Below are positions 26,531-34,124 of a DNA stretch of 64,000 nucleotides, one piece after another. Numbering within the stretch: position 1 is the first letter of the stretch; every line of letters starts with the position of its first letter. Origin of the DNA: Elusimicrobiota bacterium. Its GTDB lineage: Bacteria > Elusimicrobiota > Elusimicrobia > Elusimicrobiales > UBA9959. The notes under the pieces were generated by a model. That model saw only the letters and a list, made by a program, of their open reading frames with translations, was not told the origin of the DNA and ran no database searches. Made by a program: the position numbers and the translations under genes. The DNA is taken from positions 1-64,000 of the forward strand of contig JAINCQ010000009.1 in NCBI GenBank assembly GCA_036574205.1. The letters run 5' to 3'.

Positions 26531-27862
26531 TTAAAAAGCAAGAACTTCTTTAAGCTCCGGTTTTTTATCTATTTGTTTTTTGATGTTTGCTTCTCTTATT
26601 GGGTTTTTATAATCTTTTGATTGGAACTCATAAGTAAAATTGGTATGCACATCATATCTTCCTTCTAAAAGAGCTATTGTATCTTCAACAAAAACCCTCT
26701 CTTCATCAGTAGGTATAACAAAAATCTTTACCTTTGAATTATCCGCTGATATAATAGTTTCTGCGTTTCTTGTTTTTGAAATAAAATTTCTCTCTTTATC
26801 TATTATTATTCCTAATTCCTCAAGCCCTTCGCATGCCTTCTGCCTTGTAATGGGACCCATTTCTCCCACACCTGCGGTAAAAACTATAGCATCCACTTTA
26901 CCAAGTGAGGCATAATAAGCACCTATATATTTTTTTATTCTGTATGATTCTATCTCTATTGCAATCTTTGCTCTCTCATCTCCATTTTCCGCCGCAATTT
27001 CTATATCTCTTCTATCCACATACTTGCCGGTTATTCCAAGCACTCCGGATTTTTTATTTAATAAATTATCCATCTCCTTTGGGGTTAGATTCTCTTTCTG
27101 CATTACAAAAAGACCTATAGCAGGATCATGATCCCCCGCTCTTGTACCCATAACAAGACCCTCAAGAGGTGTAAAACCCATTGAGGTATCATAAGAACAA
27201 CCATCTTTTACAGCATTAATTGACGCCCCATTTCCTATATGCGCTATTATAAGATTTGTTTTAAAAGGATCTTTTCCAAGTAAAACACTGGCTCTTTTTG
27301 CAGTATATAAAAAAGAAGTTCCATGAAAGCCATATCTTCTTATGCCATATTTTTCATACCATTCATACGGAAGGGCATAGAGATATGAGTGTTTTGGCAT
27401 TGTCTGATGCCATGCTGTATCCATAATAGCGGTATGTGTAATATCAGGTAAAATTTCCATAGCTGCTTCAATTCCCATAACATTCGGTGGATTATGTAAG
27501 GGCGCTAAAGAATATAACTCTTTAAATGTTTTAATTACATTATCATCTATAATTACAGATTTTGTGAATTTCTCTCCACCATGAACTACCCTGTGTGCAC
27601 AGGCAATAATTTCTTCAACCTCTTTTATAACCCCTGTTTGAGGATTTTTTAAAGTATTCAAAACTAAATTGAAAGCCTCTTTATGATTTTTAACATCATA
27701 ATTAAATGTCAATTTTTCTCCATTTAAAGGCTCGTAATTGATAAAAGATCCGCCAAAACCAATTCTCTCAACTATACCAGAGGATATAAAGCAATTTTTT
27801 TCTCTATCATAAACAGAAAATTTTAAAGATGAACTTCCACAGTTTATTGTTAATATTTTCAT
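26531..27862 (-). CDS. ackA: Acetate kinase
   Basis: INCGSSSLK, HRVVHGG, APLHNP, RRYGFHGTS, TSMGFTPLEG, VIPTDEE. Confidence 0.97.
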   Translation of the reverse strand: MKILTINCGSSSLKFSVYDREKNCFISSGIVERIGFGGSFINYEPLNGEKLTFNYDVKNHKEAFNLVLNTLKNPQTGVIKEVEEIIACAHRVVHGGEKFTKSVIIDDNVIKTFKELYSLAPLHNPPNVMGIEAAMEILPDITHTAIMDTAWHQTMPKHSYLYALPYEWYEKYGIRRYGFHGTSFLYTAKRASVLLGKDPFKTNLIIAHIGNGASINAVKDGCSYDTSMGFTPLEGLVMGTRAGDHDPAIGLFVMQKENLTPKEMDNLLNKKSGVLGITGKYVDRRDIEIAAENGDERAKIAIEIESYRIKKYIGAYYASLGKVDAIVFTAGVGEMGPITRQKACEGLEELGIIIDKERNFISKTRNAETIISADNSKVKIFVIPTDEERVFVEDTIALLEGRYDVHTNFTYEFQSKDYKNPIREANIKKQIDKKPELKEVLAF

Positions 27863-27984
27863 TTTCTCTCCTTTTTAAGAAAAGAAAAACCTTCTATTTA
27901 TATTATACAAATAAAAATAACTGAAACTGAAAAATTTTAGAACTACACAAATTTTATTTTCTAAAATATAATTAGGAGGTTTAT

Positions 27985-28620
27985 ATGGATGAAAATGTTT
28001 TAAAGGCTGATAGAATTCTGATTGAAAAGGTTAAAGAAGCATTAATAAAAAATGGATTTAGTTGTGAAGTATTTGAAACCAAAGAAGAAGCAAAAGATTT
28101 TTTAGTTAAAAAAATTGGTAAAGGGAAAACAGTTGGATTTGGTGGAACTATGAGTTTAAAGGAGCTTGGAGTAATTGAAGAGATTTCAAAAAATAATAAA
28201 ATTTTTACCCATAAACCTGAGATGAGTTTAGAAGAAAGAAGGAAGGTATGGATAAATGCATTAACCTCTAATTTTTATATTGCTTCACCTCAAGCTATAA
28301 CAAGAGATGGAAAACTTATATTTGTTGATGGAACAGGAAATAGAACAGCGGCAATTAACTGGGGACCAGAGGAATTAATCTTAATAGCAGGTAAAAACAA
28401 AATAACAAAAGACGAAGAAGAAGGCTTATGGAGATCAAGAAATATTTCAGCGATTAGAAACAACATAAGACTTGGCAAAAATAATCCCTGCGTAAAGACT
28501 GGAAAATGTGAAGACTGTAGTTCCAGAGATAGAATCTGCAATATATTAACTGTGTTATGGAAAAAACCAAAGATAGCAAATATAACAGTCATTTTAATAA
28601 ATGAAGAACTTGGATATTAA
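27985..28620 (+). CDS. LUD-domain lactate utilization protein
   Basis: GFGGTMSL, AITRDG.L.FVDGTGNR, GKNKI, PCVKTGKCEDC...RIC, EELGY. Confidence 0.88.
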   Translation: MDENVLKADRILIEKVKEALIKNGFSCEVFETKEEAKDFLVKKIGKGKTVGFGGTMSLKELGVIEEISKNNKIFTHKPEMSLEERRKVWINALTSNFYIASPQAITRDGKLIFVDGTGNRTAAINWGPEELILIAGKNKITKDEEEGLWRSRNISAIRNNIRLGKNNPCVKTGKCEDCSSRDRICNILTVLWKKPKIANITVILINEELGY

Positions 28621-28663
28621 TATATAACTTACAAATTTTTGTATAGTTTATTCAGGAGGATAT

Positions 28664-28930
28664 ATGGAGACATTAATAAATCTTTTATGGGGGATTATTT
28701 TTTCGTTTGCTGGAGCTTTGATAGGAATACTTTTATTTATAAAAATTTCTAAAAAGCTTCCAGTTATATTTGAAAAAATAACACCTAATATAGATGAAGG
28801 AAAAGAGATTATAAGGGGTAATCTTGCTGTCGGAGAATATTTTGGGAAAATAGTTGGAGCTTCAATAATAGGAATTAGCATAATAATAGCCGCAGCGGTT
28901 TTTGCTGGAATTATAGCGGGGCTTCATTAA
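28664..28930 (+). CDS. DUF350-like small membrane protein
   Basis: 88 aa, 2 TM, TPNIDEGKEIIRGNLAVG...GISIIIAAA; AGGAGG RBS. Confidence 0.75.
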   Translation: METLINLLWGIIFSFAGALIGILLFIKISKKLPVIFEKITPNIDEGKEIIRGNLAVGEYFGKIVGASIIGISIIIAAAVFAGIIAGLH

Positions 28931-28942
28931 TAGTTTTTGAAT

Positions 28943-31510
28943 ATGAAATTATTTGTATTTTTTCTAACCTTGGTTTTTAATATTAATTTTCTTTTTGCAA
29001 GAGCTGGTGGTGGTTGTCTTGAAAAAGGGACAATGGTATTAACCCCCTCTGGATATATACCTGTTGAGAAATTAAAAGTAGGGGATAAAATAATTTCTAA
29101 TTTAAATAATATTTCAGAAATAAAAAATATTTACTCATCTGCCTCAGATAACTTTATAGAGTTAAAAGCCTGCGGGAAAAATATATCTGTAACCAAATAT
29201 CATCCATTTATGATATCTAAGGGAACTTTTAAAGAGGCTGATTTTTTAAATAAAGGAGATAAGATTTTTATATATATCAAGACGAAAAAGAACTAAACTG
29301 CAATATTGAATCAAAATCAGAGAAAAAAAAAGAAAAATTATATTTATAACATTCTTGTATATCCTTACCAAACCTATATTTCAAACGGATATATAGCTCA
29401 TAATAAAGGTTGCTTTTTGCCGGATACTTTTATAATAAAAGAAGATGGATCAAAACTCAGGATATCAGAAATAAAAAAGGGCGATATCCTGCTTTCTTTT
29501 GATAGATATGGAAAAATAACAAAAACTAAAGTAAATGAAATAATTAAAATAAAAGCAAATGAATACTATATAATAAAAACAAACAATGTTTCAGTATCTG
29601 CTACATTAGAACATCCTTTTTATACAGGAAATGGTACTTACAAAACCTTAGAAAGTCTTAAGATAGGAAATGAAATATATATTTATGATGGAGAAAGCAA
29701 AATAAAACCTCAAAAAATAATCTCAATAGAAAAAGTAAAATCAGATTCTTACGTTTATAATTTAAAAGTTGATTATCCAAATACTTTTTTTGCAAACTTT
29801 ATCGCTGTTCATAATAAAGGTGGTTGTTTTGCGAGAGGCACAAAAATAAAAACTCCTGATGGAGAAAAAAATATTGAGGAGATAAAAGAAAATGAAACTA
29901 TATACACTTATGTGGAAAATAAACTTATAAAGGCAAAAATTATAAAAACCCATACAACAACAGACCTATTGGTTGAAATAGAAGCAAGTGGGAAAAAACT
30001 TAAAACCACTTATGAACACCCTATTTTAACGGAAAATGGTTTTAAAAAACTCAAAGAAATTAAGATAGGTGAAAAAATAGCTTTTTTTGAAAATAAAATA
30101 ATCTGGCTACCTGTAAATCAAATAAAATCTTTATATTTAGATGAGGTATATAATTTGTCTGTTGAATTTCCCAATACATTTATAGCAAACGGCTTTATAG
30201 TTCACAACAAAGGTTTTACAAGAGGTTACTACTGGTGCTCATATTCATCAAGAGTCTCAAAAGGAAATCCAAATTCCTTAATCTATTACATTCTTGGAGC
30301 TTTAACATTACTATATCTTATGAAAAACAAGAAAAACAGTGAAGGATCTGCCTATCTTTATCCACGTTCAGAAATAGTAAAAAAATCAGAGAAAACAGAA
30401 AAACTTCTGGAATTTTTATCAAAACAAGATGAAAAGCTAAATATTGATTATCTTAAAAACATAGTCAAAAATACTTTCATAAAAGTTCAAAATTCGTGGG
30501 AGATGAGGAATTATGAAACTATAAAAGACCTACTTACACCACATATATATACCAAACATTCTACACAACTTGATATTATGAAAGAAGCTCATGAGATAAA
30601 TATAATAGAAGATCTTTCTGTTTTAAGTATAGATTTAGTTGGTCTTAGATATACAATAAAAGAAGATGGAAGATTTTTTACAGCTTTAATAACAGCTCAG
30701 GCAAAGGATTATTATATAGATGATAGAACCAATCAGTTTTTGAAGGGAGATGCAACAATTTCCATATTTCAGGAGTTCTGGACTTTTAAATTTTCAAATG
30801 GAAAATGGTTGCTTGATAGTATAGAACAAACTCAGGAATCAGATATCCTATCCAGAGAAGATTTTGTGGAGCAGTTTATAAACGACAGTGTCTATCAAAA
30901 AATTTATGAAAAAGATATTTCTAAGAATAGTTACTCTGAAGCACAGTTCGAGAATTCACCAATAATAAAAACAAATAAAATAACAAGCTATTTAAATTCC
31001 CTTGAAAAAACTGATAAGATGTGGAATAGTGGAAAAATGGAAATAGATTCAAGCTTAGCTTTTTTAAAAGTTTATGAGGCATGGGTAAAAAGAGATCCAT
31101 CTTTTTTGAACAATGAATATATATCGGATGAAATGATTGAAACTCTAAAAAAATTAATAATTGAGAAAAAAAATGAAGGCTTTATTTTTGAACTTAGAAA
31201 TTTATGCATAAGAAAAGTTGAAATTGTGTTGGTTTATAATATGGCAGAAAATGGGAAAGATGAATTTGTGGTTAGATTTTCAGCCCATGCTCAAAAAAGA
31301 ATTTTAAAAGCAAATCAAATTATTATGGAAGATGAATATGTTAAGCCTTTTACTGAATATTGGGTTTTCTCAAGATATGATAATAGATGGAAAGCAAAAG
31401 AAATCCTTCCAAAACACAAAGGAGTAAAAGCTGTTTATGCAGAAAACAAAGATGAAGACTCTTCCCCCGCCCAGCTTGAATGGTATTACACTAAGAAAAG
31501 GACATATTAA
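28943..31510 (+). CDS. Signal peptide + 3 tandem Hint domains + TM + 2 Tim44-like domains; interrupted in Hint 1 (ORFs 28937-29296 and 29306-31510 are one gene)
   Basis: Both ORFs are in the same frame with a TAA at 29294. LFARAGGG start; three C...TxxHP...YN.xV...HN units; TM LIYYILGALTLLYLM; two repeats of F.KV..AW/SW...F.E.W.F....W. Confidence 0.85.
29015..29404 (+). other. Hint/intein-like domain 1 (interrupted)
   Basis: CLEKGTMVLTPSG...VTKYHPF...IYNILV...IAHN. Confidence 0.85.
29411..29815 (+). other. Hint/intein-like domain 2 (135 aa)
   Basis: CFLPDTFI...ATLEHPF...VYNLKV..PNTFFAN..AVHN. Confidence 0.92.
29825..30208 (+). other. Hint/intein-like domain 3 (128 aa)
   Basis: CFARGTKIKTPDG...TTYEHPI...VYNLSV..PNTFIANG..VHN. 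Confidence 0.92.
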
Positions 31511-31553
31511 GATTCATTTTTAAATTAATTTAGCAATAATTTATTTTTATAAG

Positions 31554-34124
31554 TTAATTATCTTTAATTAATATTTCTTTACCATTGCTAGTAATCTTAA
31601 ATTTTTTAATACTTTCATTCTTTATTATTTCAAGAGCAAGTTTATCCATAAGATGTTTTTGTATTACTCTTTTTAATGGTCTTGCCCCGAAATCTTGATT
31701 ATAACCTTCTTTGAATAAAAACTCCCTTGCTTTCTCATCAACTTCTATCTCAATCTCTTTTTGTCTAAGTATCTCTCTTAATGATTCAATCTGTATATTT
31801 ATGATCTTATAAATATCATCTTTATTCAAATTTTTAAACAGTATAATTTCATCAATTCGGTTTATAAATTCAGGTCTAAAATACTTAAGCAAAATATCCA
31901 TAAGTTCTTCATTAGTTATTTTAGAAACAGCTTTTTTAAGTATATATTCACCTGCTATATTAGAGGTCATTATAAGTATGGTATTTTTAAAGTCAACAAG
32001 TCTACCTTTACCATCAGTAAGCCTTCCATCATCTAAGATTTGCAAAAATATATTAAAAACATCTGGATGAGCTTTTTCTATCTCATCAAAAAGCAATACT
32101 GAATAAGGTCTTCTTCTAACTTTTTCAGTAAGTTGTCCCCCCTCTTCATAACCAACATATCCCGGCGGAGCACCAATTAATCTTGCAACAGAATGTTTCT
32201 CCATATACTCAGACATATCAAACCTTAATAACGCTTTTTCGTCATTAAACAAAAACCAGGCAAGCGTTCTTGCAAGCTCAGTTTTACCAACACCTGTAGG
32301 ACCTAAAAATAAAAAATTTCCAATTGGCTTTTTAGGATCGCTTATCCCCGCTTTTGCTCTTCTAATTGCATTTGAAACAGCAACAATCGCATCATCCTGA
32401 CCAACTACTCTTTTTGATAACTCTTCTTCTAACCTCACAAGCTTTTGTTTTTCACTTTCAAGCATTTTGCTTACCGGTATCCCGGTCCATTTAGAAACTA
32501 TTATGGCTATATCTTCTTCATCAACCTCTTCTTTTATCAGACTACCATCTTTTTGAACTTCTTTAAGATCTTGAGAAAGACTATTTATCTTTTTTTCAAA
32601 CTCAGGAATTTTTCCATATTTTATCTCGCTTGCCTTTGTCAAATCCCCTTCTCTTTTAAACCTTTCTTCCTCAAATCTCAATTTTTCTATCTCAGACTTT
32701 ATTTCCTTTATCTTTACCACTAACTCTTTTTCTTTTTTCCATTTTGCTTTTTTTAGTTTTATTTGATCTTCAAGGTCTCTTATCTCTTGTTTTATTTCTT
32801 TAAGTTTTTTCTTACTGTCCTCGTCGATTTCCTTTGAAATTGCAAGTTCTTCCATTTTAAGTTGAAGTATTTTCCTTTCTATCTCATCTATTTCTATCGG
32901 TTTTGAATCTATTTGCATTCTCAAGTTAGCGCATGCCTCATCTACCAGATCAATTGCTTTATCTGGCAAAAATCTATCACTAATATATCTGTTTGAAAGT
33001 AATGCTGCCTGAACTATTGCGTTGTCTTTTATTCTAACCCCATGATGAACCTCATATTTTTCTTTTAATCCCCTTAATATGGCTATGGTATCGTCAACTG
33101 TAGGTTCTGAAATAAAAACCTTTTGAAATCTTCTTTCAAGAGCCGCATCCTTTTCAATATATTTTTGATACTCATTTAAAGTTGTTGCTCCAATACATCT
33201 TAATGTGCCACGGGCAAGCGCAGGTTTTAACATATTAGCCGCGTCAACTGCACCTTCAGCCTGTCCTGCTCCAACAAGTGTATGTATTTCATCTATAAAA
33301 AGGATTATATTGCCATCTGAATTTTCAACCTCTTTTATAACGGCTTTTAATCTTTCCTCAAACTCTCCTCTAAATTTGGCGCCCGCAATTAAGCTGCCCA
33401 TATCAAGCGAAACTATTTTCTTATTTTTAAGTCCTTCTGGCACATCTTTATTGACAATTCTTAAAGCAATCCCTTCAACTATTGCTGTTTTCCCGACTCC
33501 CGGCTCGCCTATTAAAACTGGATTATTTTTCGTCCTTCTTGATAGCACCTGTATTACTCTTCTTATCTCATCATCTCTGCCAATTACAGGATCAAGCTTT
33601 CCAGATACGGCAAGTTGGGTTAAATCTTTAGTATATTTTTCAAGAACCTGATACTTTGACTCTGGCTCTTGTTCAGTTATCCTCTGATTTCCCCTCATCA
33701 TAACCACTGCATTTAATATAACGTCTTTTGTTATTGAATATTTCTTAAAAATATTCCTGATAATTGAATTATCACTCTCACTCATTGCCGCCAGAATATG
33801 TTCACCACTTAAATACTCATCCCTCATCTTATTCATTTCCTTAAAAGCATTAATAATTATCTTTTCTGTATCTCTTGAAAGATAAACCTCAAAACTTCCA
33901 CTTAATTTAGGAAATTTTTCAAGCTCTCCTTTTATATCATTTATAAATAAATTAATATTTACTCCAATTCTCTTTAAAATTTCACTTACTATAGAATCAT
34001 CTACATTTATAAGTGATAATAGCAAATGAACTGGCTCTATGTATTGATTTGAGTTCTCTAAAGCATATTGTCTTGCTAACTGTAAAGCCTGTTGAGTTTT
34101 TATAGTCATCTTATCAAAATTCAT
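31554..34124 (-). CDS. clpB: Chaperone ClpB
   Basis: Two AAA+ modules (GEPGVGKT, GPTGVGKT), long M-domain coiled coil, GARPLKR. Confidence 0.97.
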   Translation of the reverse strand: MNFDKMTIKTQQALQLARQYALENSNQYIEPVHLLLSLINVDDSIVSEILKRIGVNINLFINDIKGELEKFPKLSGSFEVYLSRDTEKIIINAFKEMNKMRDEYLSGEHILAAMSESDNSIIRNIFKKYSITKDVILNAVVMMRGNQRITEQEPESKYQVLEKYTKDLTQLAVSGKLDPVIGRDDEIRRVIQVLSRRTKNNPVLIGEPGVGKTAIVEGIALRIVNKDVPEGLKNKKIVSLDMGSLIAGAKFRGEFEERLKAVIKEVENSDGNIILFIDEIHTLVGAGQAEGAVDAANMLKPALARGTLRCIGATTLNEYQKYIEKDAALERRFQKVFISEPTVDDTIAILRGLKEKYEVHHGVRIKDNAIVQAALLSNRYISDRFLPDKAIDLVDEACANLRMQIDSKPIEIDEIERKILQLKMEELAISKEIDEDSKKKLKEIKQEIRDLEDQIKLKKAKWKKEKELVVKIKEIKSEIEKLRFEEERFKREGDLTKASEIKYGKIPEFEKKINSLSQDLKEVQKDGSLIKEEVDEEDIAIIVSKWTGIPVSKMLESEKQKLVRLEEELSKRVVGQDDAIVAVSNAIRRAKAGISDPKKPIGNFLFLGPTGVGKTELARTLAWFLFNDEKALLRFDMSEYMEKHSVARLIGAPPGYVGYEEGGQLTEKVRRRPYSVLLFDEIEKAHPDVFNIFLQILDDGRLTDGKGRLVDFKNTILIMTSNIAGEYILKKAVSKITNEELMDILLKYFRPEFINRIDEIILFKNLNKDDIYKIINIQIESLREILRQKEIEIEVDEKAREFLFKEGYNQDFGARPLKRVIQKHLMDKLALEIIKNESIKKFKITSNGKEILIKDN

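Follow-up and report, generated by a model that had tools for sequence, protein, structure and literature searches.

What would three intein-like Hint domains, set only two or three residues apart, do in the exported part of a membrane protein that also carries Tim44-like domains? The question is raised by positions 28943-31510 (+) of a 64,000-nucleotide stretch of contig JAINCQ010000009.1 from an Elusimicrobiota bacterium (hereafter the window, meaning the whole stretch that was analysed), which form one 855-codon frame with a single in-frame TAA. In order, this frame encodes a signal peptide, RAGGG, Hint1, KG, Hint2, KGG, Hint3, a KG-tail, a membrane helix and two Tim44-like domains. This is the architecture that the first-pass annotation had proposed, and it is confirmed here by the reading of frame 1 together with Pfam.

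On our best reading, the locus would be a two-gene inner-membrane module, composed of a DUF350-like protein and a type-I membrane protein with Hint cassettes. As to the cassettes, we see an even chance that after export they excise themselves and that the cassette's own lysine captures the Gly thioester, which would re-join the tail. The evidence lies in the junctions of the Hint units, in the topology of the protein and in the distribution of its relatives.

The Hint units and their junctions

The window protein scores above the Pfam cut-offs for three of the families that the first-pass annotation had named for a check, namely Tim44 (1.4e-26, 93.8 bits against a cut-off of 29.6, two stretches), Intein_splicing (6.9e-20) and PT-HINT (1.2e-19, 71.4 bits against 27.7, three stretches). 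Further matches were obtained with Pfam Hint_2, Vint and Hint and, in NCBIfam, with the intein N- and C-terminal splicing regions. The three units had been described as diverged copies of about 130 amino acids (aa) with Cys1, a block-B TxxH and a terminal His-Asn; they measure 128-135 aa, share 25-34% pairwise identity and keep all of these positions. A homing-endonuclease domain is absent, as had been claimed: Pfam Hom_end_hint reaches only 0.088, and units of 128-135 aa leave no room for one. Likewise, Pfam finds no toxin domain C-terminal to the window Hints, where the helix and the two Tim44-like domains follow instead, so the denial of a pre-toxin context holds.

A first parse covered 121 proteins (P0001-P0121, two of them the window's own product), whose units were delimited by the junction motif itself. 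They carry two (2 proteins), three (41), four (75), five (1) or six (2) Hint copies. All 323 internal linkers consist of Lys followed by 1-7 Gly, and [AGSP]RGGGG directly precedes the first Cys in 112 of the 113 complete N-termini. After the last Hint, the relatives continue with KGG(G)F and then with a tail rich in Gly, Ser, His and Tyr.

The junctions were also counted free of this motif, using a unit-core profile without the Cys1 and His-Asn columns on all proteins and on six-frame translations of 87 loci. This gave 711 domain matches; 24 partial or edge matches were set aside and the remainder was collapsed to 639 distinct units. In this count, the -1 residue is Gly in 638/639 units, residue 1 is Cys in 638 (Ser in one), the penultimate residue is His in all 639, the terminal residue is Asn in 638, the +1 residue is Lys in 638 (Met in one) and the +2 residue is Gly in all 639. 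The gene with Met+1 also carries a TAG, and the single unit with Lys for the terminal Asn comes from a contig with a coverage near 1x according to its name. Conservation of Gly-1 and Lys+1 among homologues, together with variation in copy number, had been named beforehand as the test of the first interpretation; the junctions are held across phyla, and copy number does vary, as detailed below. Within the catalytic core, block-B Thr is kept in 434 and block-B His in all of 435 units, and Cys1 is the sole cysteine in 331 of these 435.

By their sequences, the units are positional orthologues: identity is 44-66% between units at the same position of different proteins and 29-42% between different positions within one protein. 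Three types can be told apart by their starts. Type A begins with CLExGT, type B with CFLPD and type C with CFPAG; the linker is exactly KG before type B in 131/137 cases and mostly KGGG before type C (105/167). The six-copy proteins are arranged as (A,B)x3. In alignment A1, the mean pairwise identity of Hint2 (0.54) equals that of the Tim44-like domains (0.49-0.55), and Hint1 and Hint3 lie at 0.39-0.41.

An AlphaFold2 model of Hint2-KGG-Hint3, for which 54 orthologous segments were aligned, is confident (pLDDT 92.9, pTM 0.71), all beta and has the HINT fold: Foldseek gives a probability of 1.00 to mini-inteins, bacterial intein-like (BIL) domains and Hedgehog 1at0, with TM 0.78-0.90 on target length. 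The PDB matches, to which each half of the model contributes, include the Ssp DnaB mini-intein 6frh (6.7e-10), Tetrahymena BIL2 6y75 (1.6e-9), 4o1r (2.8e-9), the C. thermocellum BIL 2lwy (6.8e-8, TM 0.85) and 1at0 (6.3e-7). By sequence, the closest solved relative is Tetrahymena BIL2 (6y75/6tmm, 5.8e-6), and 2lwy follows at 7e-4. The window units are thus Hint domains of the BIL, PT-HINT and mini-intein cluster, a kind already known, and the annotation's placing of them among Hints without Cys, Ser or Thr at +1 is upheld by Lys in that position.

Topology, partner gene and spread of the family

A signal-peptidase-I-type site lies before the Arg, with S, A, L, V, T or I at -3 in 114/116 members and A, G or S at -1 in 115/116. 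Across the 121 proteins, Lys and Arg together average 0.53 over the 12 residues that precede the helix and 3.37 beyond it. Because of this cleavage-site pattern and charge asymmetry, we place the Hints outside and the Tim44-like domains in the cytoplasm (N out, C in). The cytoplasmic part after the helix comprises 390 residues with the two Tim44-like domains and ends in EDSSPAQLEWYYTKKRTY. A lipoprotein signal at Cys25 was considered and rejected, as the preceding residues are G-G-G and do not form a lipobox.

The gene directly upstream, which the first-pass annotation did not mention, matches Pfam DUF350 (PF03994) at 4.7e-5 and 23.9 bits, below the 26-bit cut-off, and is called DUF350-like here. 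Counts of neighbours and taxa at the locus level rest on the 80 loci that were kept. In 72 of these, the next gene upstream, on the same strand and at a median gap of 23 nucleotides, encodes a highly conserved homologue of about 90 aa with two helices (..TPNIDEEKEIARGNxAVAEYFGR..). Across 301 genomes of the phylum, strong matches to this partner (E<=1e-28) are confined to exactly the nine genomes with the Hint-Tim44 gene, adjoining it. In 23/80 loci the pair is preceded by a LemA-like gene (about 189 aa); the window shows none, and its upstream place is taken by a LUD-domain gene (27985..28620, Pfam 3.2e-37). A complex prediction for the DUF350-like partner with the tail and helix (alignments A3 and A4) scored 0.00 and carries no weight either way.

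A word-indexed protein search returned 442 proteins at E<=0.001 among 7999 scored candidates, and both PT-HINT and Tim44 are present in 120/120 of the matches listed. In species genomes, 196 of 212 stretches with the pattern encode relatives of the window protein. The kept loci are labelled Elusimicrobia, Lentisphaerae, Kiritimatiellia, Verrucomicrobiota, Planctomycetota, Nitrospirota, Syntrophales and other Deltaproteobacteria, Acidobacteria, Anaerolineales, Gammaproteobacteria (among them three Legionella species) and, in some cases, Micrarchaeia bins. Judged by these matches, the Hint-Tim44 family is large and spread across many phyla. Its distribution within the phylum of the window is patchy, with the gene found in 10/301 sampled genomes, nearly all of one family. 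When the cytoplasmic part alone was searched exhaustively, 1328 representatives reached E<=0.001, and a threshold of E<=1e-30 was reached by 105.

Among the Gammaproteobacteria, the Legionella carriers have two or three Hints (L032, L038, L075 and L080). One of them is a Legionella sp. bin (L038); the others, L. massiliensis, L. saoudiensis and L. lytica, are isolates, and no further cultured carrier is present among the loci kept. Three bins labelled Micrarchaeota or Micrarchaeia carry a bacterial-type Hint-Tim44 gene (L030, L055 and L062); in L055 and L062 a type-B unit (CFLPD) comes first, and Ser replaces Cys1 in one unit of L055.

Beyond the Tim44-like genes, a PT-HINT search of the 301 phylum genomes gave only a few weak or N-terminal-only matches (G300, G307, G196, G006 and G203), and in five module-carrying genomes it found the Tim44-like genes only. 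Remote matches all show HN/KGG (slashes mark junctions), but the word index may have selected that motif, and they were not counted towards the generality of Lys+1. Five of the proteins retrieved (P0214, P0216, P0217, P0222 and P0223) combine an unrelated N-terminal domain with tandem GG/C..HN/KGGGGGGG/C Hints and are eukaryote-like in make-up by impression.

Some relatives have no Hint at all. In the relative G012, the Hint-less single-domain paralogue L096 reads ..YA/RAGGGGGGGGGGG, followed by the helix and Tim44. The complete Hint-less relative P0312 reads ..YA/RGGGGGGTGGGGGGGFGGGY (also given as ..YA/RGGGGGGTGGGGGGGFGGGYSGSYY..helix) and the likewise complete P0285 reads ..FA/RGGSYDGGGGSGF..; P0292 and P0269 are further complete examples. 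These Hint-less relatives keep the layout of signal peptide, ARGG.. Gly/Ser tail and helix. Since a Gly-rich start after the signal peptide is present where Hints are lacking, the Gly tract is native to these proteins and houses the Hints, in agreement with the first-pass annotation. All eight double-Tim44 loci of the phylum sample lie in frames of at least 595 aa, which had suggested obligatory Hints; these complete relatives soften that impression.

The Gly/Ser tracts of L096, P0312, P0285, P0292 and P0269 hold no Lys. The lysine thus belongs to the cassette and is gained or lost with it, and excision would not simply restore the ancestral tail. The first interpretation, that precise excision rebuilds a Gly-rich start of the Tim44 type, is accordingly supported in part: the Gly-rich stretch after the signal peptide is found in L096 and P0312, and the lysines that excision would leave have no counterpart there.

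Fate of the exported cassettes

The following course of processing would fit the junctions. After Sec export, each Hint would fold and turn the Gly-Cys bond into a thioester; Asn cyclisation (succinimide) would cut the Asn-Lys bond, and the cassette's own lysine would capture the Gly thioester via its alpha- or epsilon-amine. The Hint would then depart, leaving the tail re-joined as R-G4-K-G-K-G2-K-G... on the Tim44-like anchor. We favour re-joining over C-terminal cutting alone because even the first unit, left with no N-extein beyond RGGGG once the signal peptide is removed, retains Cys1 and Gly-1, and because Lys+1 and Gly+2 are near-invariant, which a route through the alpha-amine alone would not require. 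If the epsilon-amine is used, the tail would contain a Gly-(N-epsilon)Lys isopeptide, with the backbone passing via lysine side chains and a free alpha-amine at each joint; this version would take about half of the even chance given to excision and re-joining. That each cassette is a one-shot, ATP-free extracytoplasmic Gly-to-Lys ligase, acting through the Lys+1 epsilon-amine or delivering the thioester to envelope amines as a periplasmic counterpart of BUBL BIL2, is possible but rather unlikely in our estimate.

Such chemistry has precedents. Passages of two reviews (PMC7664689 and PMC7765530, citing Dassa 2004 and Aranko 2013) describe BIL domains that have no +1 nucleophile, yet cleave, and some of which splice. 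For Tetrahymena BUBL BIL2, section 2.4 of PMC8616854 reports 'an isopeptide bond (K[eNH2]-C-ter)' formed without ATP.

Several points weigh against excision and re-joining. We infer all of its chemical steps, and junctions conserved to this degree would equally be expected of selfish cassettes whose removal the host needs. A free alpha-amine would lie beside the Gly thioester, and K-G cyclisation and similar side reactions could compete with the joint. According to a passage of PMC7664689, BIL domains 'produce predominantly cleaved products', and A-type BILs are described in part of PMC7765530 as cleaving C-terminally without ligation. Lys+1 is not universal in PT-HINT either: a Ruminococcus phage copy has HN/A before a toxin-like domain, and tblastn of the Hint2 core against phages returned two records, both with HN/A. 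Copy number changes fast, from 0 to 6 Hints over the whole family, and P0277 (two Hints) and P0280 (five) are near-identical in signal peptide, tail and cytoplasmic part; either cassettes were truly gained or lost between the two, or the assembly has collapsed a repeat.

The window's genome itself adds a further objection. No other Hint or Pfam-detectable Tim44 locus was found elsewhere in it, and a diverged, Hint-less paralogous pair lies on contig 31 at about 81107-82692 (L135 2108..3693, -). Its DUF350-like gene is 48% identical to that of the window and overlaps by 4 nucleotides with the gene of a 443-aa protein, which has a signal peptide, a Tyr/Asn/Ser-rich tail, a helix and a double Tim44-like part ending in ..PLQIEWYM. 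This protein matches the C-terminal part of the window protein by BLASTP (6e-11, 22% over 322 aa), and Pfam finds nothing in it. Because a Hint-less module is present in the same genome, the core function does not require the Hints.

The reviews that report mainly cleavage by BILs, in the passages of PMC7664689 and PMC7765530 just named, also favour the first rival, by which the Hints would be self-removing pro-domains that cut at both ends or just at Asn/Lys, with nothing re-joined. The mature protein would then begin with Lys-Gly(n), and free Hints and tiny peptides would be discarded; the first N-extein, which after signal-peptide removal is just RGGGG, is seemingly dispensable. On this account Cys1 and Gly-1 should matter little, as Asn cyclisation needs neither, and both are kept in 638/639 units, first units included. 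Simple cutting also leaves the strict Lys+1 and Gly+2 unexplained, and the released KG or KGGG peptides have no evident use. We regard cleavage alone as a minority outcome.

A second rival was judged separately. The Hints may be selfish or neutral, mini-intein-like passengers that spread by duplication and recombination in the GGN-rich DNA of the tail; their sole 'function' would be removal, and the junctions would be conserved since failed removal harms the host protein. The fast change of copy number over evolution keeps this reading open. In 90 near-full cytoplasmic parts among the best 150 representatives, there are no Hints in 29 proteins, one in 20, two in 15, three in 19, four in six and five in one, many of the 29 Hint-less rows being N-truncated gene calls that make this label noisy. 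Copy number thus varies between close relatives, and in a quick tree of the cytoplasmic part (79 rows, those with fewer than 300 aligned residues having been dropped) the Hint-less rows are scattered, with 18 changes, a number as low being reached in 182-202 of 500 shuffles, so that they cluster no more than shuffled labels do. The three-cassette difference between P0277 and P0280 and the Hint-less module of the same genome point the same way, as does the occurrence of the G/C..HN/KG(G) cassette in other tail contexts, namely in P0220 (one Hint, one Tim44-like domain), P0208, P0197 and P0214/P0216, matches that were possibly drawn in by the junction motif itself.

Against passengers of this kind speak the lack of a homing endonuclease, the positional orthology of the units (44-66% versus 29-42%) and the conservation of Hint2 at the level of the Tim44-like domains. 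The noisy Hint-less label of the tree and the possibly collapsed assembly behind the two-versus-five pair also take weight from this rival. All told, we find a selfish or neutral role doubtful, though worth keeping beside excision and re-joining.

Conjugation in trans, raised already in the first-pass annotation, would make of the cassettes an ATP-free periplasmic ligase or cross-linker, with Gly thioesters passed to foreign amines, for example on peptidoglycan, phosphatidylethanolamine, the DUF350 partner or another copy. It would suit a periplasm without ATP, and a passage of PMC7765530 describes the Hedgehog Hint as handing its thioester to a lipid. The transferable units are tiny (RGGGG, KG and KGGG), however, and the helix and Tim44-like domains, being C-terminal, cannot be the transferred group. 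Moreover, the Lys at +1 of every unit is ideally placed to win in cis, and the operon offers no candidate acceptor besides the DUF350-like protein, all of which makes this rival improbable. Finally, some HINT-fold domains are inactive, and these might form a non-processing structural periplasmic ectodomain, an idea to which we give very little credence given that, across many phyla, every catalytic position is conserved in 638-639 of 639 units and that Cys1 is so often the only cysteine.

The window copy and known Hint systems

The features of the locus in the window are collected in Table 1.

Table 1. Coordinates of the DUF350-like gene and of the parts of the Hint-Tim44 frame in the window
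Feature	Position	Strand	Basis or remark
DUF350-like two-helix membrane protein, 88 aa	28664..28930	+	Pfam DUF350; gene 12 bases upstream of Hint-Tim44 frame
Signal peptide M1-A19 (..NFLFA/R)	28943..28999	+	Sequence reading
R20-A-G-G-G24, N-extein of Hint1	29000..29014	+	Sequence reading
Hint1 C25-N154, 130 aa, type A, block B TKYH, terminal HN, stop-interrupted	29015..29404	+	PT-HINT 29033-29416, 2.9e-10, one TAA inside; alignment A1
In-frame TAA, codon 118, variable loop of Hint1	29294..29296	+	Sequence
Linker K155-G156: +1 of Hint1, -1 of Hint2	29405..29410	+	Sequence
Hint2 C157 (CFLPDT..) to N291, 135 aa, type B, block B TLEH, terminal HN; best conserved unit	29411..29815	+	Pfam; alignment A1
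Linker K292-G-G294	29816..29824	+	Sequence
Hint3 C295-N422, 128 aa, type C, block B TYEH, terminal HN	29825..30208	+	Pfam; AlphaFold2 model
K423-G and exported tail (FTRGYYWCSYSSRVSKGNPN), begins K-G-F-T-R-G-Y-Y-W	30209..30274	+	Sequence
Membrane helix, about S445-M460, then KNKK	30275..30322	+	Sequence reading
Tim44-like domain 1, cytoplasmic	30443..30823	+	PF04280, 2.1e-13, above cut-off
Tim44-like domain 2, cytoplasmic	31058..31378	+	PF04280, 5.5e-14, above cut-off
Conserved C-terminal motif EDSSPAQLEWYYTKKRTY and stop codon	31454..31510	+	W847, Y848 and R853 invariant in 17/17 of alignment A1

Owing to the TAA, translation table 11 splits the frame into two open reading frames, 28937..29296 and 29306..31510; the first-pass annotation had only implied the stop codon in speaking of a 'repaired gene', and the fast change in copy number was also absent from it. 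Beyond the TAA the frame remains open and conserved (alignment A1). Two genomes of the same genus (G001 and G002) have uninterrupted orthologues with 57% and 53% identity and sense codons at the TAA position. An alternative genetic code was rejected, as there is a single stop and as both same-genus relatives have sense codons there. The TAA also occurs in a Logan contig of run X1, which shows 0 differences over 28600-30200 at a depth of 12.3; this run is possibly the window's source sample, hence not independent, and contigs hide minor variants. No RNA data set containing the stretch was listed, and run X2 covers just short portions of it. For the window copy this leaves three accounts: it is a pseudogene of recent origin, a strain variant or a sequencing error. 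Unless it is one of the latter two, the gene is probably inactive through the nonsense codon in Hint1, and a product restarting 3' of the TAA would have no signal peptide.

An acetate kinase gene (26531..27862, -, 7.4e-144) and a ClpB-type AAA+ chaperone gene (31554..34124, -, AAA_2 1.6e-70) flank the locus, the latter convergent with the end of the Hint-Tim44 gene. A scan of 27800-31700 for promoters and terminators was uninformative: it gave 19 promoter-like sites, where 22.6 were expected, and did not find a terminator.

Among known systems, the units share with A-type BILs a HINT fold of about 130 aa, Cys1, a block-B TxxH, a terminal His-Asn, the lack of a homing endonuclease, the occurrence in exported bacterial proteins and the lack of Cys, Ser or Thr at +1 (Lys in 638/639 here). 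The A-type BILs reportedly go back to Amitai 2003, Dassa 2004 and Aranko 2013, the last on the C. thermocellum BIL (PDB 2lwy). In contrast to them, the units described here keep a constant site in the Gly tail of a single conserved family and form arrays of 1-6, spaced 2-8 residues apart, with near-invariant Gly-1, Lys+1 and Gly+2. By a passage of PMC7765530, an A-type BIL usually occurs once in its protein, within a hypervariable region, and the proteins that carry such domains are not conserved.

BUBL1 BIL2 of Tetrahymena thermophila shares the tandem arrays and an N-extein ending in Gly, and it is the best solved match by sequence and one of the best by fold. The original study is said to be that of Chiarini et al. 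2021 (PDB 6y75/6tmm). That system belongs to the eukaryotic cytoplasm, and its flanking cargo consists of whole ubiquitin-like domains, whereas the exteins of the window family are 2-8 Lys/Gly residues in the bacterial periplasm, with the lysine exactly at +1. PT-HINT domains (PF07591) agree in the Pfam match above cut-off, in export and in block structure; they differ in sitting just before a C-terminal toxin domain that they are thought to release, and the window protein has no toxin. Class 1 mini-inteins (Ssp DnaB, Npu DnaB and gp41-1) agree in fold and catalytic residues and include the top Foldseek matches 6frh and 4o1r. They need Cys, Ser or Thr at +1 and occupy conserved sites of cytoplasmic, mostly DNA-metabolism proteins, whereas the window family has Lys at +1 and its site in a low-complexity exported tail. 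The Hedgehog Hog domain has no terminal His-Asn and carries a sterol-recognition region after the Hint; units of the window family have His-Asn and no extra region between Hint and Lys. Bacterial Tim44-like proteins of the TimA type (PF04280, NF033779) share the signal peptide, Gly-rich stretch, helix and Tim44-like domain. Unlike these, the window family has two Tim44-like domains, an end of the form ..SSPxQLEWYY..R, a DUF350-like partner and usually Hint cassettes in the Gly tract. No paper describing the combination of Tim44 with tandem Hints or the DUF350 module was found by full-text search in a body of literature that leaves most subscription journals outside, the matches being judged by title and abstract and, for DUF350, among the papers listed.

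The purpose of BIL domains has been unclear since their description in 2003, and this family, with hundreds of orthologues and a fixed site, is a small, naturally occurring test system. Should the lysine prove to be the acyl acceptor, the family would represent protein splicing without Cys, Ser or Thr in the ATP-free periplasm, possibly leaving isopeptide joints, which would be relevant to the intein mechanism, to envelope biology and to protein-ligation tools. Should the cassettes turn out to be selfish, they would illustrate by what means a Hint that has no endonuclease maintains itself and gains copies within a low-complexity tail.

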